From: Deltaproteobacteria bacterium
Lineage (GTDB): Bacteria > Campylobacterota_A > Desulfurellia > JAGGSF01
Assembly: GCA_021159305.1 (NCBI GenBank)
Contig: JAGGSB010000087.1
Span: forward strand, 2,927-66,926
DNA: 64,000 bases
Direction: 5' to 3'
Shown: positions 2,197-60,354 of the stretch, one piece after another
Position numbering within the stretch: the stretch's first letter is position 1
How the letters are laid out: each line of letters opens with the position of its first letter
The notes under the pieces: generated by a model
The model's input: the letters and a program-made list of their open reading frames with translations, nothing else
Database searches by the model: none
What the model was told of the DNA's origin: nothing
Program-made: the position numbers and the translations under genes

Positions 2197-2199
2197 TTC

Positions 2200-5448: not shown

Positions 5449-6091
5449 TCAACACAAAGCTCTTTCCTTCCAATGAAGAAAGCTCTTTGCTAGAAAATAG
5501 AAGAATGCCCTTATCCTTACAAAAGTCCCCTTTTATTATATCTATCACCTTTTCAACAGAAGAAGGGGAAAGACACCTAAATGGCTCATCAGCTAAAATA
5601 ATGGGGGCATCAAGAGAAAAGATCATAGCCAAAGAAAGCCTTGCTTTTTCTCCGGGAGAAAGAAATATAACCTTTTTTTTAAAGACATCTCTCAAATCTA
5701 ATTGAGACAAAAACCGCTCTATCAAAGGCATAAATGCCGTCTTTTTTCTACCCCTCATCTTATTGATAAATAGAAGATTATCTAAGACATTCATATACTC
5801 AAACAAGCGAAAATTCTCAAAAAAAACGCTCATATATTGTCTCAGCAATAAGATATGCTCATACTTTTTCAACTCGGATGTATCCGCCCCCATTATGTTC
5901 ACCCTACCTCTTTCAGGGTAAATACTACATAAAATAATCTTAAGTAATGTGCTTTTTCCAGAACCTTCATCTCCTATAATCTTTATTACATCGCCTTTTT
6001 TTAAGTATAAATTTACACCTTGCAGGACCCAGTTGACCCTATCGTATGTTTTATATATGTCTTTCAAAAGAACTAATTCTTCTTCAACCAT
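5405..6091 (-). CDS. ftsE: cell division ABC transporter ATP-binding protein FtsE
   Basis: 228 aa. Walker A GDEGSGKST, ABC signature LSPGEKARLSLA, Walker B ILADEP. Confidence 0.75.
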   Translation of the reverse strand: MVEEELVLLKDIYKTYDRVNWVLQGVNLYLKKGDVIKIIGDEGSGKSTLLKIILCSIYPERGRVNIMGADTSELKKYEHILLLRQYMSVFFENFRLFEYMNVLDNLLFINKMRGRKKTAFMPLIERFLSQLDLRDVFKKKVIFLSPGEKARLSLAMIFSLDAPIILADEPFRCLSPSSVEKVIDIIKGDFCKDKGILLFSSKELSSLEGKSFVLNGGKLYGIYNQDPR

Positions 6092-10934: not shown

Positions 10935-10935
10935 A

Positions 10936-11907: not shown

Positions 11908-11911
11908 ATTA

Positions 11912-14288: not shown

Positions 14289-17751
<3,463 letters not shown>

Positions 17752-21683: not shown

Positions 21684-21692
21684 TTCCACCTC

Positions 21693-22167
21693 CTATTTAT
21701 AAAATGCAGGTTTGTGAGTATTTGTATGACAGGTTGTACATGCCATGCCGGGAAAATGAGCCTCTGGTCCTTTCAATGTTATCTGTGGCATACTCTTTGG
21801 CTTTGAAGGTAACATTTCATGACAATACATACACTGTTTGGTTACATCTGGTATCTTGCAACCATGAGAAAGAACAACTCCTTCCTTAGGATGGGCTACC
21901 CCAAGACCATGACAGGCTTCACATTGCAAATCCCTATGAGCACTTGACGGTTCCTTGGAACACAAATCATTGTATTCCTGCTCGTGACAGGTTTTACAGG
22001 CCTCCTTTCCTACAAGTTTTGTTGGAATGTTCAGCTGTTTGGATATATTAGCTGCTCTATAATGACCAAACACACCCATACTTTTCGGTTTGGTGAGACT
22101 TTTCAGAGCGACATAAGCTACAACAATAATAAGCACAATCAAAAAGACTCTTGCTGTCCAACTCATT
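21693..22167 (-). CDS. membrane-anchored tetraheme cytochrome c, NapC/NirT/NrfH family
   Basis: Four CxxCH motifs (CKTCH, CEACH, CMYCH, CTTCH) after one N-terminal TM helix. Length ~158 aa matches NrfH/NapC. ATG at 22167 is preceded by AAGGAGG. The track start at 22196 is a GTG with no SD. Confidence 0.7.
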
Positions 22168-22196
22168 CCCAACCTCCTTTTTACAAAATTATTCAC

Positions 22197-22225
22197 ATTA
22201 TAAATGAAATATCAAAAGTTGTAAA
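22197..22225 (-). promoter_or_regulatory. sigma70-like promoter for the cytochrome/FeS/NrfD operon
   Basis: Minus strand reads TTTACA, a 17-nt spacer, then TATAAT, ~30 nt upstream of the SD/ATG of the tetraheme gene. Confidence 0.4.
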
Positions 22226-22231
22226 TAAAAA

Positions 22232-22918
22232 TTAAACCCATTTTTTTAGCTTTTCTTTTGCTTTTTCCACCTCCTCTTCATTTATTGAACTTATTTTCAC
22301 AAAAACATTACCATCCCTGCCATAAGAACCTATCTTTACATTATATCTTTTTAGAGTTTCTTTAATAGCAAATATAATTTGCGATTCTTTTTTTTCTGTC
22401 TTCAACCACTCTGTATATATCTTTTCCCCCTGAAAACATCCTTTTATCTTTTCAAACATAGCTTTCATCTCTTTAGGCACGCCAGGCAAAACAAATATTC
22501 TATCTTCAACGATAAAGCCAGGAGCTACACCCACATCGTTTTCTATGAGACTGCACCCCTCGGGTAAATCTGCCATTTTTAGCACATTTTCTATTCTTGC
22601 CTTTTCTTTTATGCCCTTTTCTCTTATTTTTTCTTTTATTGTTTGTTCGGCGATTTTGTCTCTTACAATCTTTTTATTCAAGGCCTGTGCTACAGCTTCT
22701 CTGGTCTTATCATCAGGAGTAGGACCCAATCCACCGGTTATAATAATCTTATCTCGGTAATTTTGAATTTCATCGGCAATAGCGAAAACATCATCGGGCA
22801 AGGTAATAATCTTTTCCGGAATACTGCCTAAATCTGTCAATCTCTTTGCCAGATAGGTAGCATTCGTGTTTTCTATATCTCCGGCCAAAAGCTCATCGCC
22901 GATACAGAGAATCACCAT
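22232..22918 (-). CDS. CinA-like / molybdopterin-binding (MoCF biosynthesis) domain protein, stand-alone
   Basis: 228 aa. N-terminus VILCIGDELLAGDIENTNATYLAKRL and GGLGPTPDDKTREA are signature motifs of the CinA N-terminal/MoaB-MogA fold. It lacks the CinA C-terminal deamidase domain. Confidence 0.6.
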   Translation of the reverse strand: MVILCIGDELLAGDIENTNATYLAKRLTDLGSIPEKIITLPDDVFAIADEIQNYRDKIIITGGLGPTPDDKTREAVAQALNKKIVRDKIAEQTIKEKIREKGIKEKARIENVLKMADLPEGCSLIENDVGVAPGFIVEDRIFVLPGVPKEMKAMFEKIKGCFQGEKIYTEWLKTEKKESQIIFAIKETLKRYNVKIGSYGRDGNVFVKISSINEEEVEKAKEKLKKWV

Positions 22919-23441
22919 CTCTCCTGCCTTTCAGAAATATGTTCTTATTCTCCTCTATAGATTTTGTAAAAACCTTTCCAATCGAAGATAACCATATATT
23001 TTCCTCAAAAGGCAATAGAGGAGAAACAAAACCTGTCATATATGTATTTAAAAAACGCATATCTTTGATGCTTTTGCAATCAACAATTACAAATCCTCTT
23101 TTCTGCAAATCCCGCTCTATATTTTCTGGATAGCTGGAATCTGCTGGTTTTATTTTCATACTTGACGATATACCAATGCCCTCTTTTTTTAAATATTTTA
23201 AGTATCTTAAGGCTTCTAACATCTCAAAGGAAAGAAGAATGTCGCCTTCTCCCATGGGTACTGTTGGTGAATATACCTTATGTGAAAATCTCACGAAGGT
23301 GATTACACTGCCTCCTCTCTGTGCCATACCGTGAACTTCAGATTTTTTTACATCAAAATTAGATAACATTGCGCAAATAGAGATAAGTTCGCCTGTTTTT
23401 AGGATTCCCTGTCCTCCCACACCACAGATTACGATATTCAT
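22893..23441 (-). CDS. iorB: indolepyruvate:ferredoxin oxidoreductase subunit beta
   Basis: I place the start at the ATG overlapping the iorA stop (ATGA). It then begins MNIVICGVGGQGILKTGE, the typical IorB/OFOR-gamma-like fold. Confidence 0.8.
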   Translation of the reverse strand: MNIVICGVGGQGILKTGELISICAMLSNFDVKKSEVHGMAQRGGSVITFVRFSHKVYSPTVPMGEGDILLSFEMLEALRYLKYLKKEGIGISSSMKIKPADSSYPENIERDLQKRGFVIVDCKSIKDMRFLNTYMTGFVSPLLPFEENIWLSSIGKVFTKSIEENKNIFLKGRRDGDSLYRR

Positions 23442-25123
23442 TCTATCGCTCCAAATGGACAGACTTGTTTGCATAAGTTACATCCATTACAGAGAGAAGA
23501 AATAATATCCATTTTATCTCCCTTTTTTTGTATGGCTGGACACCCCAACGAAAGACATACATTACACCCCGTGCATTTCTCAGCATTGATATACAGTGGT
23601 TCTTTTTTTTCTACTATCAACGCACAGGGAGCACGGGCAATGATAACCGAGATATCATCTCTTTCAATTTCTTCTGAAATAGTTTCTTTTAATTCTTCTA
23701 AATCAAAAGGGTTAACAATTCTTATATGCTCTACCCCACAGGCTTCTACTATGTCCTCTATGGGAATTTTCTGGGTTTCTCTTCCCTTTGCATCTTTTCC
23801 TGTTCCCGGATGTGGTTGATGTCCTGTCATTGCAGTGGTCATATTATCCAGGATAATGATGGTATCCGTTCCCTTGTTGTAAACACTGTTTAAAACACCA
23901 GTAATACCGGAGTGATAAAAGGTAGAATCACCAATTACAGCCACCGCTTTCTTGTCATTTAATTTAGAAAAGGCATGAAGGGCATTTACTCCCGCTCCCA
24001 TGCATAGAATAAAATCCATACTACGAAGCGGCGGAAGCACTGCTAAACTATAACATCCTATATCTCCCAAAACCGTAAGTTTTAATTTATGTAAAATGTA
24101 AAATACGCCTCTATGCGGACACCCAGGACAGAGAACGGGAGGCCGAGCAGGCACATCTATACTTTTGGGAATCTCTTCATTTAATATTTCTTTTTTTAAT
24201 TTTTCTACACTCATCTCAAATGAGCCAGATATAGTTTGGACATTTAACCCCATTGCTTTTATCTGCTCTCCTATAAATGGATCTACCTCTTCTACAACAT
24301 ACACCTTATCTACGGAATGACAGAACTGTTCTATTTTTTTTCGGGGTAGAGGAAAAGACATTGTAATCTTTAAGATAGATGCATCTTCAAATGCCTCCCT
24401 GACATAATTATAAGATACACCACAGGTAATAATTCCCAATTTTTTTGACCTCATCTCTATTTTGTTGTAAGAAAAATTATCTGAAAAATCTCTTAATTTA
24501 TCTAATCTTTCCATCATTCTTATCTTCATTTTCCTGGCGTAGGCAGGTATGGCTGCATACTTTTGTGAGTCTTTTTTATATAATTTTTTGAATTCTGTGC
24601 GCCTGCCTTCAATGTTCACAACACATTTAGAATGAGATAATCTAGTTGTAATCCTTAAAAGAATAGGAGTATCAAATTTTTCCGATAGATCAAATAATAA
24701 TTTTGTGAGTTCGTATGCTTCCTGGCTGTCAGATGGTTCAAATAGTGGTATTTTTGCAGATAGAGCATACCAACGGTTGTCCTGCTCGTTTTGCGAGGAA
24801 TGCATATTGGGATCATCTGCTGAAACTATAAGTAGACCTCCATTTACACCAGTATAAGAAAGTGTCATTAGAGGATCCGCCGCAATATTCAGACCTACAT
24901 GCTTACTGGCATAAAGAGATCTGACGCCAGAAAGGGAGGCACCTATTACACACTCCAGAGCCACTTTCTCATTGACTGCCCATTCTGTTTCTATCTCAGG
25001 AAATTTTGAAAGTGTTTCTAATATCTCTGTGGATGGTGTGCCAGGATAAGATGAGGCATATCTTACCCCTGCTTCATGGCTACCGTATGCAATAGATTCG
25101 TTACCAGATAAGAAACTGCGCAT
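23438..25123 (-). CDS. iorA: indolepyruvate:ferredoxin oxidoreductase subunit alpha (TPP-binding, 2x[4Fe-4S] C-terminus)
   Basis: 561 aa. TPP motif GDSTFYHSG, C-terminal CTGCNVC...CP and CNGCNLCKQVCP ferredoxin motifs. Confidence 0.85.
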   Translation of the reverse strand: MRSFLSGNESIAYGSHEAGVRYASSYPGTPSTEILETLSKFPEIETEWAVNEKVALECVIGASLSGVRSLYASKHVGLNIAADPLMTLSYTGVNGGLLIVSADDPNMHSSQNEQDNRWYALSAKIPLFEPSDSQEAYELTKLLFDLSEKFDTPILLRITTRLSHSKCVVNIEGRRTEFKKLYKKDSQKYAAIPAYARKMKIRMMERLDKLRDFSDNFSYNKIEMRSKKLGIITCGVSYNYVREAFEDASILKITMSFPLPRKKIEQFCHSVDKVYVVEEVDPFIGEQIKAMGLNVQTISGSFEMSVEKLKKEILNEEIPKSIDVPARPPVLCPGCPHRGVFYILHKLKLTVLGDIGCYSLAVLPPLRSMDFILCMGAGVNALHAFSKLNDKKAVAVIGDSTFYHSGITGVLNSVYNKGTDTIIILDNMTTAMTGHQPHPGTGKDAKGRETQKIPIEDIVEACGVEHIRIVNPFDLEELKETISEEIERDDISVIIARAPCALIVEKKEPLYINAEKCTGCNVCLSLGCPAIQKKGDKMDIISSLCNGCNLCKQVCPFGAIE

Positions 25124-48929: not shown

Positions 48930-49478
48930 ATGCACATGATGGAAGTTAGAATTCACGGAAGAGGGGGACAGGGAGCGGTTGTCGCATCTCAAATTCTTGC
49001 TTTAGCAGCAATGAAAGAAGGCAAATATGTGCAATCCTTTCCGGAGTTTGGTGTGGAGAGAAGGGGTGCCACGGTAGAGGCATTTGTAAGGATAGCAGAT
49101 AAAAAGATAAATGAAAGATGCAAGATATATCATCCTCACTATGTAGTTGTCATGGACCCTGCACTTGTAAACATAGTTGATGTAACTGAAGGTATAAGGG
49201 AAAACGGATGGGTACTCATAAATACAAGTAAAACACCTACGGATTTCTCTTTTCATGCCAATGTAACTACGATAGATGCTTTTTCTATCGCCACTGAAAA
49301 AGAATTGGGCTCACATGGGCATCCCATTGTAAATACCACTATTTTAGGAGCATTTGTAAAGATAGCCCCGGTTGTTAACATCAAAACCCTGGTAGAAGCA
49401 ATAAAGGAAAGTATTTCTTCAAATACAGAAAAAAATGTAGAAGCGGCGTTAGCTGCCTATGATAAGGTAAAAATATGA
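48930..49478 (+). CDS. 2-oxoacid:ferredoxin oxidoreductase subunit gamma
   Basis: 182 aa, IHGRGGQGAVVASQILA. First gene of a G-D-A-B ordered OFOR operon. Confidence 0.85.
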   Translation: MHMMEVRIHGRGGQGAVVASQILALAAMKEGKYVQSFPEFGVERRGATVEAFVRIADKKINERCKIYHPHYVVVMDPALVNIVDVTEGIRENGWVLINTSKTPTDFSFHANVTTIDAFSIATEKELGSHGHPIVNTTILGAFVKIAPVVNIKTLVEAIKESISSNTEKNVEAALAAYDKVKI

Positions 49479-50995
49479 AATTTCGCGCATCGGAACTGCC
49501 GCTTACTCCAATTTCTCTAAAAAATACAATTTCTATTAGAACAGGAGACTGGAAATATGTGGAGCCATTCTATGAAGGAAAATTAGCTCCCTGCATCTCT
49601 GCCTGTCCGGTGGGAACGGATATCACCAGTTGTATTGCCCTTTTAGCTAAAGAAGAATTTCAAGAAGCAGCTAAACTGTGGAAAGAAAGTAATCCCTTTC
49701 CTGGTGTGTGCGGCAGAGTATGTCCCAGATTTTGTGAGAGGGAATGTCTTCGTAAAAACTTAGGTGGAAGCGTAAAAATTCACCTTTTAGAAAGGTTCAT
49801 TGGGGATTTAAATATTTATGTTCAAAACAAAATTCAGAAAAACGGGAAGAAAATAGCTATCGTAGGCTCTGGCCCGGCAGGACTTGCCTGTGCTTATCAT
49901 CTTTCAAGAAAGGGATATGAAGTAACCATTTTTGAAAAAGAAAATCTTTTAGGAGGGCTCCTGCGCGCTATTCCCTCTTACCGATTACCTCCGGAAATTG
50001 TAGATAAAGAGATTGAAGGAATTTTAAAACAGGGAATGGATATAGAAATAAATAAAGAGTTGGGAAAAGATTTTTCCTTGGAAGAGTTAAAACAAAAATT
50101 TGATGCAATCTGTATAGCCACAGGACTGAAGGAAAGAAAGTTGAATATAAAAGGAGCGAAACTTTCTAATGTATGGAGTGGCAGAGAATTCTTAAAACTG
50201 AATAAGGATATACAAAACAAAAAGATTGCCGTAATCGGCGGCGGAGATACGGCTATAGATGCGGCGAGAACAGCTTTAAGAAGAGATTCAAAGGTTGATA
50301 TCTTTTACAGACGGAGAATGGAAGATATGCCTGCTAATCCTTATGAAGTAGAAGAAGCCATAGAAGAAGGTGTTGATATAAAATACTTATCCGAACCTTT
50401 AAAAATAGAAAAATACAACTCTTTTCTCAGGCTTTTTTTAAAAAAGAAAGCAGATGAAAAAGACGAATTTTTCATCAGTACAGATGGAGTGGTGATAGCA
50501 ATTGGCGAAGAGAGAGAAATGGTTAACAACGAAATAAAGGATACTTTTCTCTGCGGCGATATACTAACGCAAAAAGGAACAGTGTCTCATGCCATTGGTT
50601 CTGGTAAAGAGGTTGCTTCTTTAATTCATGAATACTTTTTTGGAGAAGAAACTTCTACTGCTTTACCTATTGCGAAGTTTGAAGACTTAAATTTAGATTA
50701 TTTCAAGGAAGAGTATCCACCAGAAGAGAAAAAAAGAGATATATCTCAAAGGATAAAGGATTTTGATGAGGTATATCAGGGATTAACAAAAGAAGAGGTA
50801 ATAAAAGAAGCAAAGAGATGTTTTGGTTGTGGAAAGTGCAATGGATGCGATAACTGTTATGTATTTTGTCCTGACGCAGCTATTTCTAAACAAGATGGGA
50901 AATACATTATAGATTATGACCATTGTAAGGGCTGTGGTATATGTATGGAAGAATGTCCCAGAAGTGTAATTTCCATGAGGAGAACAGAAAAATGA
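49475..50995 (+). CDS. fusion protein: GltD/NfnB-like FAD/NAD(P)H oxidoreductase (N-terminal ~400 aa) plus OFOR delta-type 2x[4Fe-4S] ferredoxin (C-terminal ~90 aa)
   Basis: 506 aa. N-terminus: CISACPVGTD...FPGVCGRVCPRFCEREC (GltD-type FeS), FAD site IAIVGSGPAGLACA, NAD(P)H site IAVIGGGDTAIDAA. C-terminus: CNGCDNCYVFCP and CKGCGICMEECP. It occupies the delta position between gamma and alpha. The stop overlaps the alpha start (ATGA). Confidence 0.8.
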   Translation: MKFRASELPLTPISLKNTISIRTGDWKYVEPFYEGKLAPCISACPVGTDITSCIALLAKEEFQEAAKLWKESNPFPGVCGRVCPRFCERECLRKNLGGSVKIHLLERFIGDLNIYVQNKIQKNGKKIAIVGSGPAGLACAYHLSRKGYEVTIFEKENLLGGLLRAIPSYRLPPEIVDKEIEGILKQGMDIEINKELGKDFSLEELKQKFDAICIATGLKERKLNIKGAKLSNVWSGREFLKLNKDIQNKKIAVIGGGDTAIDAARTALRRDSKVDIFYRRRMEDMPANPYEVEEAIEEGVDIKYLSEPLKIEKYNSFLRLFLKKKADEKDEFFISTDGVVIAIGEEREMVNNEIKDTFLCGDILTQKGTVSHAIGSGKEVASLIHEYFFGEETSTALPIAKFEDLNLDYFKEEYPPEEKKRDISQRIKDFDEVYQGLTKEEVIKEAKRCFGCGKCNGCDNCYVFCPDAAISKQDGKYIIDYDHCKGCGICMEECPRSVISMRRTEK

Positions 50996-52143
50996 AAAAA
51001 CTTCTTACCGGAAATTATGCTGCCTCTTACGGTGCCATACTATCCCGGGCAGAGGTTATCTCTGCTTACCCCATTACACCCCAGACCCAAATTGTAGAAA
51101 AACTATCTACTATGGTGGCAGAGGGAAAATTGGATGCCGAATTTATCAATGTAGAATCGGAACGCTCAGCCCTGGCAGTATGTATGGGTGCATCTGCAAC
51201 AGGTGCCCGTGCATTTACGGCAACTTCAGCCCAGGGATTAGCTCTTATGCATGAACTTTTGCACTGGGCAGCAGGTGCACGTTTACCTTTGGTCTTGGTT
51301 AATGTCAACCGGGCAATGGCTCCTGGCTGGACAGTATGGTGTGATGAAAACGACAGCCTGTCGCAGAGAGATACGGGTTGGATACAGCTTTATTGTGAAA
51401 GTAATCAGGAAGTATTAGATACGGTTATTCAAGCCTACAAAATTGCAGAAAAGATTATGTTACCGGTGATGATTTGTATGGACGGTATATTTCTATCTCA
51501 TACCCAGGAGGTAGTGGATGTTCCAGAGCAAGAAAAAGTAGACAGGTTTCTTCTCCCTTACAAGCCACCGTTTTCCCTGGACACATCTTCTCCTCATGCC
51601 TTTGGCAGTCTTGTGCCCCCTCATGTTTATTTTGAGTTTCGCTACAAATTGCAGCAGGCGATGGATGAGGCGCAAACAGAAATTGAGAAAACAGGCAAAG
51701 AATTTGGAAATACATTTGGAAGAGATTATGGACTTTTGGATGAATATCTCCTGAATGATGCAGAGGTAGCTATTGTTGCTTTAGGAACAGTGTGCGGAAC
51801 ATGCAGAGTAGCAATAGATAGATTAAATGAAAAAGGAAACAAGATCGGAATGCTCAGAATAAGAACATTTAGACCATTGCCTAAGAAAAAAATAATAGAG
51901 AGTTTAAAAGATGTAAAAAAGATTATTATAATAGACAGAAACATTTCCTACGGTCACCATGGTATTTTACACGAGGAGATAAAATCCGCATTTTATAGAA
52001 AACTAAATATGCCCCTGTTTGGTTTTATTGCCGGGTTAGGGGGTAGAGACATTACGCCCGAAGATATCGAACAGATGGTAAACTACACATTGAAACATGA
52101 AGAGCCAGATACAGACATTCTATGGTGGGGAGTAAATAAATGA
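50992..52143 (+). CDS. 2-oxoacid:ferredoxin oxidoreductase subunit alpha
   Basis: Starts MKKLLTGNYAASYGA at the ATG overlapping the upstream stop. ~383 aa. Confidence 0.9.
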   Translation: MKKLLTGNYAASYGAILSRAEVISAYPITPQTQIVEKLSTMVAEGKLDAEFINVESERSALAVCMGASATGARAFTATSAQGLALMHELLHWAAGARLPLVLVNVNRAMAPGWTVWCDENDSLSQRDTGWIQLYCESNQEVLDTVIQAYKIAEKIMLPVMICMDGIFLSHTQEVVDVPEQEKVDRFLLPYKPPFSLDTSSPHAFGSLVPPHVYFEFRYKLQQAMDEAQTEIEKTGKEFGNTFGRDYGLLDEYLLNDAEVAIVALGTVCGTCRVAIDRLNEKGNKIGMLRIRTFRPLPKKKIIESLKDVKKIIIIDRNISYGHHGILHEEIKSAFYRKLNMPLFGFIAGLGGRDITPEDIEQMVNYTLKHEEPDTDILWWGVNK

Positions 52144-53045
52144 AAATATTTACCATACCCGAAGAAGAAAATATGAACTCGGGGCATGTCGCCTGTCCAG
52201 GGTGTGCCTCTGCGTTGTCAATGAGGTTTGCTTTAAAAGCATTGGGAAGAGAAACTATCCTCACCGTTCCTGCCTGCTGCTGGTCTGTTATAGATGGTCC
52301 TTTTCCTTATTCTGCGGTAAAAGTGCCTTTATTTCATATTGCTTTCGGCACAACTGCAGCCTTTGCTTCCGGCATCAAAGCCGCTTTAAAAATGAAGAAT
52401 AAAAAAGCCAATGTCGTGGTATGGTGTGGAGATGGAGAGGCATTTGATATAGGTTTCCAAACCTTATCTGGGGCTGCAGAGAGAAAGGAGAATATTATCT
52501 TTGTATGTTATGATAATGAAGGCTATATGAATACGGGAATCCAACGCTCTTCTGCTACACCAATAAAAGCCTGGACAACTACTACTCCCCAAAAATATCC
52601 TAAACAGGAATTTAAAAAAGATTTAATGGAGATCTTTGCTGCCCATAGGATTCCCTATGCCGCAACAGCGACGGTGGCTTTTCCTGAAGATATGATAAGA
52701 AAATTTTCTAAAGCCAAAGAAATAGAAGGATTAAAACTTATTCATATTCTTTCTCCATGCCCCCCAGGGTGGAAATTTCCAGAGAACCTTACTATAAAAA
52801 TTTCTCGTTTGGCTGTAGAAACAGGGATTTTTCCACTTTATGAAATAGAGCACGGTGAAAAGTATACGATAAACCATATACCAAAGTGGTTACCAGTAGA
52901 GGACTATTTGAAGAAGCAAGGAAGGTTTTCTCATCTAACAGGAAAGGATTACCAAGAAAAAAAAGCATCTGTTGAAAAAAAATGGCTTGAGCTTAGAGAA
53001 AAATCTAAATCTCTTGAAAAAATTCCAAAATTAAGTAATAATTAA
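52140..53045 (+). CDS. 2-oxoacid:ferredoxin oxidoreductase subunit beta (TPP-binding)
   Basis: 301 aa. Cys ligands CPGC...C and TPP motif GDGEAFDIG. Confidence 0.9.
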   Translation: MKIFTIPEEENMNSGHVACPGCASALSMRFALKALGRETILTVPACCWSVIDGPFPYSAVKVPLFHIAFGTTAAFASGIKAALKMKNKKANVVVWCGDGEAFDIGFQTLSGAAERKENIIFVCYDNEGYMNTGIQRSSATPIKAWTTTTPQKYPKQEFKKDLMEIFAAHRIPYAATATVAFPEDMIRKFSKAKEIEGLKLIHILSPCPPGWKFPENLTIKISRLAVETGIFPLYEIEHGEKYTINHIPKWLPVEDYLKKQGRFSHLTGKDYQEKKASVEKKWLELREKSKSLEKIPKLSNN

Positions 53046-53076
53046 CTTACACTTACAAGTTTAAAAGGAGGTAAAG

Positions 53077-54240
53077 ATGATAAGGTTACATGAATACCAG
53101 GCAAAGCGGATATTTTTATCCTATGACATTTCTGTTCCTACGGGATATGTTGCCTTTTCACCGGACGATGCCTGGAAAATAGCGTTGGAAATCGGTCCGC
53201 CTGTGGTTTTAAAGGCACAAATTCACGCTGGGGGAAGAGGATTGGCCGGTGGTGTAAAAATTGCCAAAACAGCAGATGAAGCAAAAGAAATCGCCTCTCA
53301 GATATTAGGAAAAAAATTGGTTACTGCACAAACAGGATCTCAGGGAATAATAGTAAAAAGATTGTTGGTGGAAGAAGCAGTAAATATAGATAGAGAAATA
53401 TACTTCAGTATTGTCGTTGATAGAAAAACATGTAAGCCGGCAATTATTGCCTCATCTGCCGGTGGAATGGCGATTGAAGAAATTGCAAAAAATCATCCCG
53501 AACAGATTATTACTGAACCCATTGAACCAATAGTGGGCATTATGCCCTATCAAATAAGAAGATTAAGTGATTTCTTAGGATTTGATAATAATAAAAAAGA
53601 GGCAGCACATATCTTCACCACACTGTACAAAATATTTGTGGAAAAAGACTGTAGGTTAGTAGAGACCAATCCTTTAGTTCTGTGTAAAAATGGCAGTTTG
53701 ATGGCCATAGATGCAAAGATGAGCATTGATGAAGATGCATTATTCAGACAAAAAGATATGGCAAGACTATGGGATATTACACAATCAGATCCGTCTGAGT
53801 TGGAAGCACAAAAACATAAACTGAGTTTTGTAAGATTAGATGGTAATATTGGCTGTATGGTGAATGGAGCAGGATTGTCTATGGCTACAATGGACCTCAT
53901 AAAGATGCATGGAGGAGAACCAGCAAATTTCCTTGATGTTGGCGGCAAAGCAACACCAGAAACAATTGCCAAAGGTTTTGAAATAATATTAAATGATCCT
54001 TCAGTGCGAGCAATATTGGTAAACATATTCGGCGGCATTGTTAGATGCGATAGGGTAGCAGACGGAATCATAAAAGCTGTACAACAGGTTAATGTGAATG
54101 TACCAGTTGCAATACGGCTTGCAGGCACAAACAGAGAAGAAGCAATAAGTATATTAAAAAAAGCTCCATTTAAATTTTCAGTTATGGATGATTTAAATGA
54201 AGCAGCGAAAGAAGTCGTTAAGTTAGCAAAGAGTGCTTAG
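53077..54240 (+). CDS. sucC: succinate--CoA ligase beta subunit
   Basis: 387 aa, MIRLHEYQAKRIF ATP-grasp N-terminus and GGIVRCD motif. Confidence 0.9.
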   Translation: MIRLHEYQAKRIFLSYDISVPTGYVAFSPDDAWKIALEIGPPVVLKAQIHAGGRGLAGGVKIAKTADEAKEIASQILGKKLVTAQTGSQGIIVKRLLVEEAVNIDREIYFSIVVDRKTCKPAIIASSAGGMAIEEIAKNHPEQIITEPIEPIVGIMPYQIRRLSDFLGFDNNKKEAAHIFTTLYKIFVEKDCRLVETNPLVLCKNGSLMAIDAKMSIDEDALFRQKDMARLWDITQSDPSELEAQKHKLSFVRLDGNIGCMVNGAGLSMATMDLIKMHGGEPANFLDVGGKATPETIAKGFEIILNDPSVRAILVNIFGGIVRCDRVADGIIKAVQQVNVNVPVAIRLAGTNREEAISILKKAPFKFSVMDDLNEAAKEVVKLAKSA

Positions 54241-54251
54241 GGAGGAAAAAA

Positions 54252-55127
54252 ATGTCTGTATGTGTTAATGAATCAACAAAAGTAGTAGTGCAAGGTATAA
54301 CAGGAAAAGAGGGAAATTTTCACGCTTTTCAGTGTAAACAATATGGCACTCAAGTTGTGGCAGGTGTTACCCCGGGAAAGGAAGGAGAAGAAGTGGCTGG
54401 CATTCCTGTATTCAACACGGTGAAAAAGGCAGTTGAAGAAACGAAAGCAAATACTTCACTTATTTTTGTACCACCGCCATTTGCGATGGACTCAGTACTG
54501 GAAGCAATAGACGCAGGAATAAAGACTGTTGTGTGTATTACAGAAGGAATACCTATAATGGATATGGTAAAGGTAAGAACGGTGGTGAAAGCAGAAGGAG
54601 TTACATTTATCGGTCCTAATACGCCAGGCATCATTACTGCAGGCGAGGCAAAATTAGGCATTATGCCAGGATTCATATTTAAAAAAGGCTCTGTAGGTAT
54701 AATGTCAAGAAGTGGAACACTGCTTTACGAAGTTGCGGATCAGGTAACAAAATCAGGGTTAGGAGAATCTACTGCTTTAGGTATAGGAGGAGATCCGATT
54801 ATAGGCACAGATTATATATACTGGGTGAAATTGTTTGAAGAAGACCCTCAGACCAAAGCCATCTTTATTATTGGAGAAATAGGTGGAATGATGGAGGAAG
54901 AAACAGCAGAATTTATAAAGTCAAACATTAAAAAACCTGTTTTTGCATTTATTTCTGGAAGGACTGCGCCACCCGGGAAAAGAATGGGTCACGCAGGAGC
55001 AATTATTATGGGTGGCAAGGGTGGTGCAGAGACAAAGATTAAAGCTTTAAGAAAAGCAGGTGTAACAGTTATAGAAAACATTACAGAAGTGGGTAAAATA
55101 ATGAAGGAGAAAATGAGTAAAGGTTAA
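54252..55127 (+). CDS. sucD: succinate--CoA ligase alpha subunit
   Basis: 291 aa, CoA-binding domain and active-site His in MGHAGAII. Confidence 0.9.
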   Translation: MSVCVNESTKVVVQGITGKEGNFHAFQCKQYGTQVVAGVTPGKEGEEVAGIPVFNTVKKAVEETKANTSLIFVPPPFAMDSVLEAIDAGIKTVVCITEGIPIMDMVKVRTVVKAEGVTFIGPNTPGIITAGEAKLGIMPGFIFKKGSVGIMSRSGTLLYEVADQVTKSGLGESTALGIGGDPIIGTDYIYWVKLFEEDPQTKAIFIIGEIGGMMEEETAEFIKSNIKKPVFAFISGRTAPPGKRMGHAGAIIMGGKGGAETKIKALRKAGVTVIENITEVGKIMKEKMSKG

Positions 55128-57658
55128 ACTTTTACTATCTTTTTCTCTCTGATAAATACCAGAAAAGTTTCCACTAAATAGGAGGGATGTAAGGTGCGGA
55201 AGAGTTTTTTGTAACTGTGCATCTTCGCTCTGTGCTTATCTATGTTTTCTCTGCTGAAGGTTTCTGTTTTGTAGTCAAAGATAAGAATCTTTTTGCCTTC
55301 TATTACGCGATCAACAATGTATGTTTTATCTTTCATGCAAACAGATAGTTCATTTCTTCCGGATTGGGAGAAGATAAACTGTGCTATTTTGCCGTTTAAA
55401 AAATCTTCTATCGTTTTTCTTGCTTGTTTCCACAAATTATCTGAGACAAATAAAAACCGGCTCTTTATTTTCTTTTCTATTTCATCCAATCTTCCAAAAT
55501 CATCTTCTGTATTTATCATCTCTAAAAAGGCATGGATTATTTTCCCGAATAGACGAGTTTCTCTTTCGCCCAAAATTTCTTCCACCTTTTCCATACCACC
55601 CCACCATATCTTGTTTAGTGGTTCACAATAATTCTTTTCCTCTATTTTTTTAGCCTTAGACCATTTTTCTTTTATTCCATCTCTAAAGGGTATATTTATA
55701 TACCTATTAATTTCGTTAAACCAGGTTTTACCTTTTTTCCCGTAACCCGAGATATACAATTCATATTTGGCTCGGGTTAAAGCAACATACAGAATATTTA
55801 ATTCCTCTTGAATACATTTTTCATTTTCTTCCTCAAATATTTCTCTTAAGTTTGGCAATTTCTCTCTCTCTTTCTTGGTATGCATCTTATATATTCCCCG
55901 AAATGTAAAATTGTCATCATAGGAAAAAATAAATTTATTCTTGCGTGGATCCAAACCCAAACTGAAGTCTGTCTCAGGCAGAATCACCGCATCAAATTCC
56001 AATCCCTTCGCCTTATGTATCGTTGAAAGCCTGATTGTCTTTCGGTGTTCTGGATGCTGGATATAAAACCTCTCTCTGTTTTCCTCTAAATATTGCAGGA
56101 ATAACAAAAGCAACGGTGGATTTTCTCTTTCATAATCTGCTGCTATGTCTAAAAGCATAGCAATATTATCAGTAACCGATTCTCCTGCTTGTTCCACAAT
56201 TTTCAAAATCAATGCATTTAGAGAAATATGGTTAACCTTAGGCGTAAGAGACTCAATTTTTTTTGTACAAAGTCCATATTTGTAATATTCATCTTGTTGA
56301 GGTAAAAAATATAAAGCATTCATTATATTTCTTACCTCCGGCACATCCAATAAAAACAGTTTTCCCTCTGCAATATAAGGTATGTTTTGTTCGTCAAATA
56401 TCTTACATATATCATTGATCATCCTACCTGTTCTGGTTAATATTGCCACCTCTTGTCCACGCCTTATAAGCTCCTTTGCTTTTTCCACGGTTTGATTTAT
56501 AACCTCTTCTCTTGTTTCAAATCTGTTTACCTCTACATATCCTTCTTCATCTATTACTGCCTCCTGAGATGCGTAATCATCAAGTAAACGGAGAAATAGG
56601 TTGTTTACAAAATTCACTATCCTTTTTGAACTTCTGTAATTTTTATCCAGTGAAATAGTTTTAATCTTTCCCTTAAATCTTTTCTCTACATGGTGGAATA
56701 GTCCTGCTTCTCCACCTCTAAATCTATATATGGATTGCTTTGTATCCCCCACATAAAACAGGCTTCCCTTTTCTTCCTTAGTGCCTATGCCCGATGTAAT
56801 CTCTTCTACCAGTGGTTCTAATATCTTCCATTGGATAACACTAATATCTTGAAATTCATCAATCAAAAGATGCTTTACTCTTCCGTCTAAGCGAAAGTAA
56901 AAATAGTCTTTATCTATACTCTTTTGAAAAAGGTTGTGAACCAAAACCTCCATATCGTGGAAGGTTACAATGTTCCTCTTTTGTTTTAATTCTTCCCATG
57001 AACGCAAAAAAGAAAAGAATGAAAAACACAAAGCATGAAGATAGGGATCAGAAGGAAATTCATGATATCGCTCTTTTATATCTATTTCCCTCATGTACAA
57101 CTCTTCCATCAAATCAAGCAGGAATTTCTTAACATTCAAGCTAACAGAATGATGAAAACCATACAGTTTTTCTATGGATTCCTGCAATATTTCATTCTTC
57201 TCCGCGTTTTCGAACAGTGTATCTATTATTTCTCTCAAATATCTCTTTACTTCACTTTCCTCAACAATTCTGTATCCAGGCAATCTACCTGCCTCAAAGG
57301 GAAATAAACCTATAACTGAAGAAAAGAAGCTGTGCACAGTAGAGATATTCAAAGAAAATCCACATTTATATAAATTATTTAATATAAGTTGTATTTTACC
57401 TCTTGCTTTTTCCCTGTCATTATCCAAAACAGTTAATAGCTCATCATCTTCCCCTCTTACAATATTTTCAATTCTCTCTCTAAGTTTCCTGCGAATATCA
57501 CAGATAGCACTATTGGAGAAGGTAATCACCAAAATTTCCTCATATCCCACACCTTTATAAAGTAAAGCAATGAGGCGAGAGATGAGGGAATATGTCTTCC
57601 CTGTACCAGCAGAAGCTAAAACGGCAATATTTTCTTCAGGATTACACAAATCTACCAT
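55124..57658 (-). CDS. addA: AddA-type helicase-nuclease (UvrD-like SF1A helicase with C-terminal PD-(D/E)xK nuclease), compact
   Basis: 844 aa. Helicase motifs I ASAGTGKT, II DEFQD, III GDTKQSIYRFRGGE, V/VI TIHKAKGLEFDAV and VALTRA. C-terminal RecB-nuclease motif IVDRVIEGKKILIFDYKT. Confidence 0.75.
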   Translation of the reverse strand: MVDLCNPEENIAVLASAGTGKTYSLISRLIALLYKGVGYEEILVITFSNSAICDIRRKLRERIENIVRGEDDELLTVLDNDREKARGKIQLILNNLYKCGFSLNISTVHSFFSSVIGLFPFEAGRLPGYRIVEESEVKRYLREIIDTLFENAEKNEILQESIEKLYGFHHSVSLNVKKFLLDLMEELYMREIDIKERYHEFPSDPYLHALCFSFFSFLRSWEELKQKRNIVTFHDMEVLVHNLFQKSIDKDYFYFRLDGRVKHLLIDEFQDISVIQWKILEPLVEEITSGIGTKEEKGSLFYVGDTKQSIYRFRGGEAGLFHHVEKRFKGKIKTISLDKNYRSSKRIVNFVNNLFLRLLDDYASQEAVIDEEGYVEVNRFETREEVINQTVEKAKELIRRGQEVAILTRTGRMINDICKIFDEQNIPYIAEGKLFLLDVPEVRNIMNALYFLPQQDEYYKYGLCTKKIESLTPKVNHISLNALILKIVEQAGESVTDNIAMLLDIAADYERENPPLLLLFLQYLEENRERFYIQHPEHRKTIRLSTIHKAKGLEFDAVILPETDFSLGLDPRKNKFIFSYDDNFTFRGIYKMHTKKEREKLPNLREIFEEENEKCIQEELNILYVALTRAKYELYISGYGKKGKTWFNEINRYINIPFRDGIKEKWSKAKKIEEKNYCEPLNKIWWGGMEKVEEILGERETRLFGKIIHAFLEMINTEDDFGRLDEIEKKIKSRFLFVSDNLWKQARKTIEDFLNGKIAQFIFSQSGRNELSVCMKDKTYIVDRVIEGKKILIFDYKTETFSRENIDKHRAKMHSYKKLFRTLHPSYLVETFLVFIREKKIVKV

Positions 57659-60354
57659 TTAAGCCATCTCTTGCAGATTGTTTTATAAAAGCACATATTG
57701 CATTTTTCCTCCTGCTCTGTAAAACAAAAAGGGCAATCTTCATCTAAGATAAGAGCAAATATCTCGTCTAATTCGTCCTGGAATTTTTTTATATCTATCT
57801 TTTCTGCCTTTAAACAAAAATCCTTCTTCAGGTCGTAAAATCCCAATTGCACAATATTTTCCGCCTTTGTATATCCCGTTTTATCTAAAAGCAATGCATA
57901 GAACGGTAACTGAACATTCACAAGTTCATTCTTCTTTTTTATATAAGTTTTTTTTATATATCCTGTCTTGTAATCCAAAATAGCATATTCCCCATCTCTT
58001 ACATCTATGCGATCTATTATTCCCTTTATCTTTATCAGGGTATCGTTTTTTAGTCGATATTCAGCTTTTCTCCTCATCTCCAGTTCTTTTATCTTCCATC
58101 CTTCGTTGAATCGCTTTTCTTCCTCATTAAAAAAGTTTTCAAACTTTTTAATATACATTTTCATTCGCCATTCATCGTAAAATGTAGCGGTTTTTGAGAG
58201 CAATTCTTTTTCAAACAGTTGTTTTAACTCAGACCACGACTTACCTTTTTGATAAATCTTTTTCAAAGCATCATGTACAATAACCCCATAATCTACCGCT
58301 TCCATCTCTCCCTTCCATTTTCGTGGTTCAGGGATGCCCACCACATTCTTTAGATAGAATTTATAGGGACAAAAGAGAAAATCATTTACAGAGGTAGCAG
58401 AATAATTGATATTTAACAATTTTTCACGAAAATCTTTCTTTCTTGGTAATGTTAATTCTTTTTTTGTATTGATGCTTTTCTGGACAACTGCCTTGCAGTT
58501 GCCAGCAAATGTTACATTTGTCTGAACAACTGCTTGAGGAAAAAGAATTTTGGCATCTATCTTCTTAGACTGAAATGGATACAAAAAGCGACTCTCTTCC
58601 TGTCCCTTTTTTTCATTTACCCGAGAGGCAAAATAGACATAAGGATGGGCTTTTGAAAGTTCATCAAAATAACACGCAAATAAAGCTTCTCTATCGTCTG
58701 CTGTGGGAAGGCCCACCCGCTTTCTAATATAGGTGTTGAGGAAATATTCTTTTTCACTCTTTTTTGGAAACACACCCTCCGTCAGTGAAGGAACGATTAT
58801 CGCTTTAAAATCTATACCTCTCGCTTCCAGCACGCCGAGCAGCTGTATGCCGTTTTCCCTTTCTCCATAAAGAGAAATACGCTTTTCATTACCCAAACTC
58901 AAAAATAGATGAACAATAGAATGAAAATCAGACAAATGGAACATTTGCTGACAACTGCCCTGCAGTTGATCAGAGAAATCATCTTTATTGAGATTTGCAA
59001 CAAAATCCATTTCATCTAAAATCTCATGATAGGCGTCTCTTTCATAAATATTGATAGACTCTCTACTATATTTATCCAGAATATGTCTCAATTTTTGGCA
59101 AAATGTCTCTATTTTATTTGTATCACACAGAGAAAAGATTTCTCTTAAAAGTACTTCTATCTCCTCATACCCTTCTATATGCTCGGTAAATATGTCAAAT
59201 CTCACCTTTTTCTCATTTTCTATATTTTCTTCCACTTTTTTGGCATATTCATTCATCATTTTTAAAAAAGGATGCCTCAAAAAAGACAAGAACTCAGCAC
59301 AATAAAAATCAGCTTCTCTAACATCGCATAGACTTTTTACAAATACATAACTCAACGATGTCTTAAAGGGCAAACCAGAGGAATAGTTGTAAGGAATACC
59401 CATCTTCTCTAAAAATGAGATAAGAGGCATAGCCAGGGATTCATCGGGTAAAATGACGGCAATTTCATTTAGGGGAATGTTCTTCTTGTCTGTTCTTTCT
59501 ATTGCCTTTATGACAAATGCTATTTCTTCCATCGTGTTTTGACATTGAAAAACCTCCACCTCAGGTAAAATTTGTGGGTAAGGACAATAAGACAGTTCTA
59601 TAGTTTCATCAAGCTTTAATCCTTCAATATTTTTGTACACAAAATCGTTTTCTTCCCACGAGATTATCCAGTCTACAGTAAATAATCTGGAAAGGGTATT
59701 TAGTATCTTTTTTTCCTTCTTTGTTATAGCCAGAAAACCAGAAAAATACAATTTACTCAAAGGTAAAACAGGTGATGTAGATACAAATTCCTCTACCTTT
59801 TTTAATCTTTCTGCATCATCCAGAAACCCATTTGCCTTTAATATCTTTTTGTAAGAAACAAATACATTCTGCAAAAGATCTATATGCTTTTCATAATCGC
59901 TGTACAAAGCTTCTTTCTTCAGATCATCAAAATTTATCTCTTCTTTTTCCAGCTCTTGAAAAAAACTCCCCAATTTTACACCGATAGTTACAAACTTTAA
60001 AAAATCTTCCCATAGCTCCTTGCTTGCATTTAGATTTTCTAATTCTTTTCTATAATTTTTCAGTACATTCCACAAAAGGAGATTTAAGGTAGGTTTTCCA
60101 GGAAATACTCTTTCTTCACCGCTACTTAATAGCAACCAATCGTAAAACTCTACGATGGAAAATAACCTCGGAGGAATAAATACACTATCTATTTCTTTTA
60201 ACAACCTTTTCTTAAAGTAATAAGCAGCCCTTTTTGAAGGAAAAACACAACAGAGAGAAGAAAAATCGGGCAAAAAACTCTCATTTTCTTTTAGAAAATA
60301 GCTCACTGCTGTTTTCAGAAAGGGTTGTTGAATGGGAATTTTTATCAATTTCAT
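57652..60354 (-). CDS. addB: AddB-type subunit (inactivated helicase-like N-terminus, C-terminal RecB-family nuclease with Fe-S Cys ligands)
   Basis: 900 aa. No Walker A. C-terminal IIDRIDVRDGEYAILDYKTG and QLPFYALLL nuclease motifs, flanked by Cys (CPYKFY ... CNMCFYKTIC, C-x2-C-x5-C) like the AddB iron-staple. Upstream of and overlapping addA. Confidence 0.7.
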   Translation of the reverse strand: MKLIKIPIQQPFLKTAVSYFLKENESFLPDFSSLCCVFPSKRAAYYFKKRLLKEIDSVFIPPRLFSIVEFYDWLLLSSGEERVFPGKPTLNLLLWNVLKNYRKELENLNASKELWEDFLKFVTIGVKLGSFFQELEKEEINFDDLKKEALYSDYEKHIDLLQNVFVSYKKILKANGFLDDAERLKKVEEFVSTSPVLPLSKLYFSGFLAITKKEKKILNTLSRLFTVDWIISWEENDFVYKNIEGLKLDETIELSYCPYPQILPEVEVFQCQNTMEEIAFVIKAIERTDKKNIPLNEIAVILPDESLAMPLISFLEKMGIPYNYSSGLPFKTSLSYVFVKSLCDVREADFYCAEFLSFLRHPFLKMMNEYAKKVEENIENEKKVRFDIFTEHIEGYEEIEVLLREIFSLCDTNKIETFCQKLRHILDKYSRESINIYERDAYHEILDEMDFVANLNKDDFSDQLQGSCQQMFHLSDFHSIVHLFLSLGNEKRISLYGERENGIQLLGVLEARGIDFKAIIVPSLTEGVFPKKSEKEYFLNTYIRKRVGLPTADDREALFACYFDELSKAHPYVYFASRVNEKKGQEESRFLYPFQSKKIDAKILFPQAVVQTNVTFAGNCKAVVQKSINTKKELTLPRKKDFREKLLNINYSATSVNDFLFCPYKFYLKNVVGIPEPRKWKGEMEAVDYGVIVHDALKKIYQKGKSWSELKQLFEKELLSKTATFYDEWRMKMYIKKFENFFNEEEKRFNEGWKIKELEMRRKAEYRLKNDTLIKIKGIIDRIDVRDGEYAILDYKTGYIKKTYIKKKNELVNVQLPFYALLLDKTGYTKAENIVQLGFYDLKKDFCLKAEKIDIKKFQDELDEIFALILDEDCPFCFTEQEEKCNMCFYKTICKRWLKW

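Follow-up and report, generated by a model that had tools for sequence, protein, structure and literature searches.

What does a 2-oxoacid:ferredoxin oxidoreductase (OFOR) do with its electrons when the gene in the place of its small, ferredoxin-like delta subunit encodes a protein of 506 amino acids? The question is raised by contig JAGGSB010000087.1 of a Deltaproteobacteria bacterium (assembly GCA_021159305.1), from which a stretch of 64,000 nucleotides was analysed; we refer to this whole stretch as the window. Six co-oriented open reading frames (ORFs) occupy positions 48930-55127 of its plus strand, in the order gamma, 506-residue fusion, alpha, beta, sucC and sucD, exactly as an earlier, sequence-only reading had placed them. 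That reading took the fusion for a delta subunit joined to a GltD/NfnB-type flavoprotein. The best explanation that we can offer, and one that we consider moderately likely, is a Por/Vor-type four-subunit OFOR whose flavoprotein-bearing delta subunit reduces NADP+, with 2-oxoglutarate suggested as the substrate by the adjoining sucCD genes.

Architecture of the 506-residue fusion

The fusion contains recognizable Fer4_20 (residues 37-113, 83 bits against a cutoff of 25.8), Pyr_redox_2 (126-346, 95 bits) and 4Fe-4S dicluster (454-499) domains. Its flavoprotein motifs are GSGPAG (131-136), R170, GGGDTAID (255-262, with GGGDTA at 255-260), YRR (278-280) and GD (361-362). The C-terminal delta core has the motifs CNGCDNCYVFCP (455-466, nt 50837-50872) and CKGCGICMEECP (484-495, nt 50924-50959), with ligands C455/458/461/465-P and C484/487/490/494-P, and it matches the delta subunit 9bt4_G at 4e-10 (42 bits). 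The FAD motif, the NAD(P)H motif and both CxxCxxCxxxCP motifs had all been read from the sequence beforehand. It had also been noted that there is no stand-alone delta gene, and a six-frame motif scan of the window agreed, finding other CxxCxxCxxxCP motifs only in an IorA-like and an NrfC-like ORF at 21-25 kb of the window, about 25 kb upstream.

A delta subunit of the PorD type has an N-terminal arm as well as this core, and both parts are present. A chimera of residues 1-36 and 455-506 scores 82.4 bits on the PorD_KorD model TIGR02179 (cutoff 60.05; model positions 6-76 of 78), compared with 66.0 bits for the C-terminus alone (positions 26-76); on PorD_Arch the corresponding scores are 83.9 and 67.1 bits. 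Residues T23, W26 and P31 of the arm are invariant among homologues. The two halves of the delta subunit are thus separated by an insertion of about 416 residues.

The inserted flavoprotein is itself rearranged. Residues 37-391 align to NfnB structures from about residue 45 of those structures onward, and the missing beginning is found further downstream, where residues 419-452 (KKRDISQRIKDFDEVYQGLTKEEVIKEAKRCFGC) match without gaps both residues 9-42 of Thermotoga maritima NfnB (4ylf_B, 14/34 identities) and residues 12-45 of Pyrococcus furiosus NfnI-B (5jca_L, 13/34 identities). In the latter protein Cys42 and Cys45 are the first two cluster ligands (PMC12221290). Since the downstream segment aligns to the NfnB N-terminus and ends in the first ligand cysteine pair, the NfnB-like module appears to be circularly permuted. 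R426, E432, E445, R448, C449 and C452 of this segment are invariant, and the positions of the classical N-terminal cysteine pair hold F, L or V and D, E or N in 67 homologues. The six ligands of the Fer4_20 domain, placed by alignment to 4ylf_B and 5jca_L together with the ligand list of PMC7596348, are invariant in the 67 sequences. All the features of an NfnB/GltD-type protein are therefore present (the domains Fer4_20 and Pyr_redox_2, FAD, GD and NAD(P)H motifs, and eight ligands), two of the ligands, C449 and C452, being supplied from the permuted position. Residues 419-452 are predicted to complete the distal NfnB-type cluster.

The first delta motif follows on the permuted pair without a break, so that the two together read RC449xxC452xxC455xxC458xxC461xxxC465P. 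Among the loci examined, this RCxxCxxCxxCxxCxxxCP motif occurs in 74/74 OFOR-linked homologues and in 3/16 unlinked ones. All 16 predicted cluster ligands (fifteen cysteines and Glu106), the YRR triplet and R170 are invariant in 67 homologues, and we predict that the fusion carries four [4Fe-4S] clusters and one FAD. The description that best fits alignments and profile scores is that of a PorD subunit into which a permuted NfnB-like flavoprotein has been placed, between arm and core. This differs from the earlier picture of about 400 residues of complete N-terminal GltD module followed by about 90 residues of delta subunit. The FAD and NADP(H) motifs of that module are intact, but its first ~36 residues are the PorD arm; an N-terminal Fe-S pair exists, but two of its ligands come from C449 and C452; and domain annotation gives no clean boundary near residue 410, where one had been expected.

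The AlphaFold2 (AF2) model of the fusion has a mean predicted local distance difference test score (pLDDT) of 84.3 and a predicted template modelling score (pTM) of 0.84. Residues 1-23 fall below a pLDDT of 50, as expected for a partner-binding arm, and the C-terminal domain lies at 60-70. In Foldseek searches the best matches were the A subunits of NfnABC and StnABC (query TM-score, TMq, 0.76-0.78), with classical NfnB at 0.64. The NCBIfam model PRK12771 (NF009410, 'NAD(P)-binding protein') aligns from end to end (protein 20-503, model 30-564 of 566, 454.3 bits), and the score nevertheless falls short of the cutoff of 516 bits, which counts against our description. The shortfall fits three deletions, totalling about 75 residues, in the compact clade of 504-508 aa to which the window protein belongs. 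Relative to the ~581-aa majority form, this clade is missing ~16 aa around a 'GEPDESGRRRP' hairpin, ~17 aa before the GD motif and a linker of ~25 aa. The model is confident at the deletion sites (pLDDT 82-95), so the compact protein looks like a streamlined form.

A frameshift from sequencing or assembly that joined a GltD-like gene to porD had been named as one of the things that would undo the fusion, with nt 50650-50800 as the suspect stretch. We found nothing in favor of such an artifact and give it a negligible probability. Five relatives of 504-508 aa from independent assemblies, 81-91% identical to the fusion, have the same uninterrupted architecture, and their loci (L001, L087-89 and L090) show matching gene order. 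Each of the best 120 matches (120/120) has the same domains and extends over 98-100% of the query, and full-length homologues number in the thousands across many phyla. The suspect stretch encodes residues 392-442, which include the family-invariant N406, F410, R426 and E432; the same-length relatives and the invariant residues across the junction exclude the artifact. Moreover, a simple joining of two genes cannot put the PorD arm at one end of an ORF and the PorD core at the other. The delta-position gene is a genuine fusion, as had been proposed, and its Pfam domains and relatives both confirm this. It is less unusual than it had seemed, since it belongs to a large family that is already in NCBIfam and has been noted in the literature on DsrL.

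Electron path, direction and substrate

Gamma, alpha and beta domains and motifs are encoded together with the fusion, as in a four-subunit Por/Vor-type OFOR. In the mechanism that we propose, a 2-oxoacid would be decarboxylated on thiamine pyrophosphate (TPP) in the beta subunit, and single electrons would pass from the beta [4Fe-4S] cluster to the two delta clusters, from these to the distal NfnB-type cluster (C449, C452, C40, C91), and from there to the proximal one (C44, C83, C87, E106). Pairs of electrons would then be gathered on the FAD and handed to NADP+ as hydride at YRR 278-280. The distal and proximal ligands were assigned from the ligand list of PMC7596348 and the alignment of the fusion to NfnB. 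The net reaction, 2-oxoacid + CoA + NADP+ to acyl-CoA + CO2 + NADPH, would be oxidative and non-bifurcating, and the delta clusters may still pass electrons to free ferredoxin. With co-transcribed sucCD, 2-oxoglutarate would be converted to succinate with the yield of one NADPH and one ATP.

The product of the enzyme thus conceived is probably NADPH, made directly, and not reduced ferredoxin. The intact motifs support the earlier proposal that the fusion should wire the OFOR to NAD(P)H, and the cofactor can be narrowed: the prediction is NADP(H) and not NAD(H), since Y278-R279-R280 is present in 67/67 sequences. In NfnB this triplet is the binding site of the 2'-phosphate, and in DsrL-2 it goes together with the use of NADP(H) (PMC7596348).

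It had also been suggested that the complex might synthesize 2-oxoglutarate at the expense of NAD(P)H, possibly by electron confurcation. Such a reductive complex would suit a reductive or reversible tricarboxylic acid (TCA) cycle, and the nearest named relatives of the organism by GuaA are Thermosulfidibacter, Desulfurobacterium, Hippea and Desulfurella, genera known for reductive or reversed oxidative TCA cycle (rTCA/roTCA) metabolism. NfnB-type FAD can bifurcate in NfnSL, and the delta clusters could in principle take a second, low-potential input; a reversible synthase could then draw on NADPH at the FAD and on reduced ferredoxin at the delta clusters, and carboxylate the succinyl-CoA that SucCD provides. 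With E0' at about -500 to -520 mV for 2-oxoacid couples (Thauer et al. 1977) and -320 mV for NADP+, however, oxidation is exergonic by ~35-39 kJ/mol, making the reaction effectively oxidative, and carboxylation with NADPH alone is uphill by the same amount and thermodynamically implausible. Bifurcating NfnAB (NfnSL) is marked by an adjacent nfnA, an extended NfnB N-terminus and a conserved Arg333 near the FAD (PMC12221290). None of the three was found: neither within the operon nor next to it did ORF and domain annotation show an nfnA-like gene, the PorD arm stands in place of the extended N-terminus, and the position equivalent to P. furiosus Arg333 (288) is Asn in the window and I, F, N, V, Y or L, never Arg, in 67 homologues. 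A bifurcating NfnB was rejected on these three grounds, and bifurcation is unlikely. Stand-alone NfnB-like proteins without Arg333 and NfnA are simple, non-energy-conserving ferredoxin:NADP+ oxidoreductases (PMC12221290). In NfnABC, whose module is among the closest structural relatives of ours, NADPH reduces the FAD and electrons then pass singly along Fe-S clusters, bifurcation taking place elsewhere in the complex (PMC11829005); the module is a plain NADPH port. As the operon also has no third electron port, we regard a reductively running complex as very improbable, and the confurcating synthase as no less so.

A complex that still reduces ferredoxin, in which the flavoprotein is a local ferredoxin:NADP+ valve or an NADPH-dependent device for reactivating or protecting the clusters, is a somewhat better candidate, although still an improbable one. 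The delta clusters of an OFOR are the normal docking site for ferredoxin, the pLDDT of the C-terminal domain is compatible with mobility, and the 2-oxoglutarate:NADP+ oxidoreductase (KGOR) of Azoarcus evansii studied by Ebenau-Jehle and coworkers is reported to pass electrons to both ferredoxin and NADP+. Against this, the contiguous cysteine motif of every OFOR-linked member sets the distal flavoprotein cluster beside the first delta cluster and implies a hard-wired electron chain, and the strict conservation of YRR and of the FAD motifs argues that NADP(H) turnover is the selected function. The same NADP+-linked design could also act on another 2-oxoacid, be it pyruvate, a branched-chain one or some other; the sucCD genes would then be there by co-regulation of central carbon metabolism or by chance. 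This last alternative, which we think possible if somewhat doubtful, concerns only the substrate.

For 2-oxoglutarate in the window lineage we see an even chance. It is suggested by the sucCD genes, which are co-oriented, begin 31 nt from the beta gene and are not separated from it by any terminator-like site in a terminator scan. Both SucCD subunits have equivalog-level scores and the catalytic histidine loop is present. The linkage is kept in L001 (87% identity) and L087-89 (81%), three of the four lineages sampled within the clade having it, and we know of no functional rationale for pairing a pyruvate enzyme with succinyl-CoA synthetase. Several observations weigh in the other direction. 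The relative at L090 (82% identity) has no sucCD beside its OFOR operon, and none of the 80 loci listed from other lineages has sucCD within 7 kb of the fusion; the adjacency is specific to the compact clade of the window. By profile scores, alpha, beta and gamma are all much nearer to the Por/Vor models than to the Kor/Oor ones. The Kor/Oor scores are well below the cutoffs (PRK08659, 178 bits against 411; PRK09627, 141 against 579; PRK09628, 48 against 364; OorC, 25 against 216). The best solved structure is the four-subunit pyruvate:ferredoxin oxidoreductase (PFOR) 9bt4 (alpha with 9bt4_B, 357.7 bits; beta with 9bt4_C, 246 bits), and alpha scores only 88 and 79 bits with the 2-oxoglutarate:ferredoxin oxidoreductase (OGOR) structures 8ys5 and 6n2n. 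The pocket segment NR107AMAPGWTV115W116 is PFOR-like as well, with T27 (in YPITP), R107 and V115/W116 as in PFORs; T27, R107 and V115 agree with residues of the pyruvate site of PFOR, and both OGOR structures have Lys or Arg at the position of W116. This pocket argument is only suggestive, and a literature search for OGOR specificity determinants gave nothing useful.

These points favor pyruvate, or a branched-chain or other 2-oxoacid, as do the best NCBIfam matches (PorA_Arch, VorA, the Vor beta subunit and PorG) and the mixture of neighbors in other operons with the gene order of the window (type I, see below): an amino-acid dehydrogenase, a TRAP DctP protein, an HMGL-like protein and an IorA-like protein, with no consensus. 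Every Por/Vor equivalog cutoff, however, is missed (PorA_Arch, 478.9 bits against 550; VorA, 455 against 646; Vor beta subunit, 396.6 against 405; PorB, 357.6 against 405; PorG, 215.5 against 225), which tells against this alternative and also against the main reading. The enzyme is inside the Por/Vor clade by its profile scores and is not an equivalog. In addition, the type-I alpha subunits share a tryptophan, W113 ('PGW'), that is absent from PFOR and from loci with the other gene order (type II), so the pocket is not simply PFOR-like; specificities probably differ between the two types. The earlier assignment to 2-oxoglutarate/succinyl-CoA chemistry is therefore weakly supported: it has the sucCD adjacency in the window, L001 and L087-89 in its favor, but it is not matched by the subunits themselves or by the other loci.

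Known systems and distribution of the family

That an attached flavoprotein can make an OFOR NAD(P)-dependent is an established principle, and the enzyme proposed here is a new member of a known design. Its specific features are a core of four genes of the Por/Vor type, a flavoprotein inserted into delta with a permuted ligand pair, the compact 506-aa form and the sucCD linkage. Two other OFORs made pyridine-nucleotide dependent by an added flavoprotein have no NfnB-like module inserted into delta. In the pyruvate:NADP+ oxidoreductase (PNO) of Euglena and Cryptosporidium, a P450-reductase-type FMN/FAD domain is fused to a single-chain PFOR. The phenylglyoxylate:NAD+ oxidoreductase PadEFGHI of Hirsch and coworkers reportedly works with NAD+ and has its epsilon as a separate subunit; the window proteins are matched by the Pad models for gamma, alpha, beta and delta at 156, 326, 232 and 60 bits.

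Another precedent is the A. evansii KGOR. Ebenau-Jehle, Boll and Fuchs are said to have found that it reduces NADP+ directly via a flavoprotein subunit of ~62 kDa, is specific for 2-oxoglutarate and NADP+, and acts oxidatively in the TCA cycle. It reportedly has three subunits (63, 62 and 37 kDa) in an (alpha-beta-gamma)2 arrangement with a fused CoA-binding subunit of ~63 kDa, sizes that would imply a KorAB-like core with fused gamma and alpha. The window enzyme, unlike this, is encoded by four separate genes of 182, 506, 383 and 301 aa. L036 (Rhodocyclaceae) and L046 also have four separate genes, with sizes unlike the reported three-subunit composition, and the best 120 matches to the L036 fusion bore only names of metagenome-assembled genomes (MAGs), with no named Azoarcus, Aromatoleum or Bradyrhizobium member among them. 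A passage of PMC10134865 assigns the KGOR alpha subunit to the GltD/NfnB/DsrL flavoprotein superfamily; according to that passage, the enzyme is like ours in combining OFOR subunits with an FAD-, Fe-S- and NADPH-binding subunit of this superfamily.

Parts of the fusion have close counterparts elsewhere. The stand-alone Fnor proteins (Cac_0764/Tsac_1705-type; Huang et al. 2025, PMC12221290) share its domains Fer4_20 and Pyr_redox_2, two [4Fe-4S] clusters and FAD, and likewise have neither NfnA nor Arg333. Fnor, however, is a free protein fed by soluble ferredoxin, whereas in the fusion the 'ferredoxin', the PorD core, is covalently attached and the module permuted. The best match in both sequence and fold is the NfnL-like domain of NfnA/StnA in the Bfu-type NfnABC and StnABC complexes (9bov, 9n5u, 8oh5; 254 and 253 bits), which shares the order of flavoprotein followed by EAxRCxxCG. 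There the module is an NADPH/FAD port into an Fe-S wire (PMC11829005); it precedes a formate-dehydrogenase-like domain and docks on a bifurcating BfuBC core, whereas in the fusion PorD follows and the docking partner would be an OFOR. The remainder of the window enzyme resembles the PorABCD-type PFOR 9bt4 in the logic of its gamma-delta-alpha-beta genes, in alpha, beta and delta sequence and in the YPITP, Arg and TPP motifs. The delta subunit of 9bt4 is an 85-aa ferredoxin-like protein that reduces free ferredoxin, and the window enzyme has W113 in the pocket instead of the residue found there.

DsrL shows the same succession of Fer4_20, FAD/NAD(P) domain, linker and C-terminal 2x[4Fe-4S], and the same YRR logic for NADP(H), but is linked to dsrAB and not to OFOR genes (PMC7596348). 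We rejected DsrL as an identity for the fusion, which lies inside an OFOR operon: Loeffler et al. explicitly left POR/VOR-linked homologues out of DsrL (PMC7596348). There is no NIR_SIR-type gene among about 36 annotated ORFs of the window, a scan that leaves aside about 20 ORFs of at least 150 aa (350-11907 and elsewhere). The three unlinked homologues that we checked (L076, L082 and L045) adjoin dsrAB and are DsrL. Six homologues that we assign to the DsrL type have neither the PorD arm nor RCxxCxxCxxCxxCxxxCP, namely the dsrAB-linked L076 and L045 and four putative members with similar N-termini, L047, L075, L027 and L065, which are not linked to OFOR genes. The protein of dsrAB-linked L082 (Desulforhopalus) does have the motif. 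According to Loeffler et al. (PMC7596348), the N-terminal ligand positions of NfnB are occupied in DsrL by Ser/Thr or Arg, and some DsrL proteins may also use a permuted cysteine pair.

The spread of the fusion was surveyed with one genome per GTDB species, giving at least 80 loci. Alpha and/or beta genes adjoin the fusion in 64 of the 80 loci listed, from more than 15 phyla and in two conserved orders. Type I, gamma-fusion-alpha-beta as in the window, is complete in 23 of these loci, in Thermodesulfobacteriota, Bacteroidota, Acidobacteriota, Planctomycetota and other groups. Type II, gamma-alpha-beta-fusion, is found in Proteobacteria and in Actinomycetota; the cultured Gleimia europaea (L037) and Varibaculum cambriense (L067) are among its carriers. 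Type II loci (L032-L039, L044, L046-L068 and others) have the alpha pocket NRAIGAPINIWNDH and YPISPQT, the pocket segment being nearly identical to that of PFOR 9bt4; in these enzymes, cultured Actinomycetota and many Betaproteobacteria may possess pyruvate:NADP+ oxidoreductases. At L043 (Candidatus Fraserbacteria MAG), a 1004-aa protein at 10696-13710, directly downstream of a type-I operon, consists of an IorA-like subunit fused to Fer4_20 and Pyr_redox_2. Given this direct fusion, the wiring of OFORs to this flavoprotein module apparently arose more than once. Literature searches found no direct description of the GltD-delta fusion. To judge from the passage of Loeffler et al. (PMC7596348), the family has been noticed but not studied. 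We know of no characterization of its four-subunit form.

Genomic setting and implications

The coordinates of the operon and of the parts of the fusion are collected in Table 1. The gamma/fusion, fusion/alpha and alpha/beta junctions are all ATGA overlaps of 4 nt, which in sequence terms indicate translational coupling of the OFOR genes. The start of alpha at 50992 is more likely than that at 50941, because it gives the ATGA overlap and because the NCBIfam alignment begins at residue 3. Alpha has YPITP at residues 26-30; beta has a TPP motif, GDG-x27-N, from residue 97, and Cys19, 22, 46/47 and 207 for the proximal [4Fe-4S] cluster. On the equivalog model PRK08534 (PorG), gamma is only slightly short of the cutoff. 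The sucC gene is preceded by its own Shine-Dalgarno sequence, AAAGGAGG, strong ones are present for both sucC and sucD, and the phosphohistidine loop GHAGA of SucD is at residue 246. Terminator and promoter scans across the region gave signals at or below shuffle expectation.

Table 1. Positions in the window of the OFOR-sucCD genes and of the segments of the fusion
Feature	Coordinates	Strand	Support
OFOR gamma subunit (182 aa)	48930..49478	+	PF01558 POR 1.3e-39; TIGR02175 PorC_KorC 207.8 bits (cutoff 81)
Predicted delta subunit (506 aa) with a circularly permuted FAD/NADP(H) flavoprotein of NfnB/GltD type inserted	49475..50995	+	Pfam, NCBIfam, AF2 model, Foldseek
PorD-type N-terminal arm, residues 1-36 (TGDWKYVEPFYEGK)	49475..49582	+	chimera scoring
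Fer4_20 domain, residues 37-113, with six of eight NfnB-type ligands (C40, C44, C83, C87, C91, E106)	49583..49813	+	PF14691 83 bits
FAD domain with embedded NADP(H) domain, residues 126-391	49850..50647	+	PF07992 95.3 bits; alignments to NfnB structures
Permuted NfnB N-terminal helix and first Cys pair, residues 419-452 (ending EAKRC449FGC452)	50729..50830	+	HMMER alignment
PorD-type 2x[4Fe-4S] core, residues 453-506 and stop	50831..50995	+	PorD_Arch, PorD_KorD and VorD matches at 449-506
OFOR alpha subunit (383 aa from ATG at 50992; 400 aa from alternative ATG at 50941)	50992..52143	+	POR_N 249 bits; PFOR_II 114 bits
OFOR beta subunit (301 aa)	52140..53045	+	TPP_enzyme_C 73.9 bits; PRK11864 396.6 bits (cutoff 405); PorB 357.6 bits (cutoff 405)
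sucC, ADP-forming succinate-CoA ligase beta subunit (387 aa)	53077..54240	+	NF001913 527.5 bits (cutoff 370)
sucD, succinate-CoA ligase alpha subunit (291 aa)	54252..55127	+	NF004230 414.9 bits (cutoff 336)

An AddAB-like pair on the minus strand (55124-60354), a UvrD-type helicase of 844 aa and a PD-(D/E)XK nuclease protein of 900 aa, converges on sucD, the stop codons overlapping by 4 nt; the arrangement is kept in L001 and L087-89. Downstream of the OFOR operon of L090 (9363-11051) there are instead an ORF of 86 aa without annotation and a pair of ORFs that match NAD kinase in Pfam, one of them weakly. NAD kinase-like neighbors of a predicted NADP+-dependent enzyme are intriguing, and may be a coincidence.

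The operon is flanked by housekeeping genes: gap-pgk-tpi, accC, trpS, cysE, guaA, miaB, mltG, purU, rsmG, mnmE and dnaA-gyrB-gyrA. The GuaA sequence has 80-95% identical relatives in MAGs only and is 60-63% identical to those of the four genera named above; the lineage is uncultured, and its nearest named relatives are thermophilic anaerobes. On the minus strand between 11912 and 19731, gyrA (11912-14287), gyrB (14289-16661) and dnaA (17878-19167) lie beside the stretch of lowest GC (0.28 at 16-18 kb), with a 564-bp gap past dnaA and a flip in the sign of GC skew near 26 kb. The origin of chromosomal replication probably lies within the window. A second, unrelated OFOR is encoded on the minus strand at 22893-25123 by an IorA-like protein of 561 aa (POR_N, TPP_enzyme_C and a C-terminal dicluster) and an IorB-like protein of 193 aa, so that the organism has several 2-oxoacid oxidoreductases. 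Directly downstream of iorAB, the genes at 19732-22918 on the same strand, encoding an NrfD-like membrane protein, an NrfC-like four-cluster protein, a small cytochrome c and a MoCF_biosynth protein, look like a quinone-interacting redox module.

Annotation pipelines call the genes of this family pyruvate/2-oxoacid:ferredoxin oxidoreductase, together with 'FAD-dependent oxidoreductase' or 'glutamate synthase'. With such labels, MAG reconstructions would credit the organism with ferredoxin reduction, or would take a reversible OGOR or POR as a marker of the reductive TCA cycle. The combination of PorD arm, RCxxCxxCxxCxxCxxxCP, YRR and absence of an Arg333 equivalent could separate the family from DsrL, NfnB and GltD. 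Its permuted, inserted topology would be an example of a soluble ferredoxin:NADP+ reductase hard-wired into an Fe-S enzyme. For specialists the surprise may be moderate to low; the practical weight is in annotation and in metabolic inference from MAGs, in a family that is very widespread and includes cultured Actinomycetota such as Gleimia and Varibaculum. If the electrons do go to NADP+, the 2-oxoacid step would be effectively irreversible and would yield NADPH, and the redox balance and carbon-fixation potential inferred for these organisms would change.

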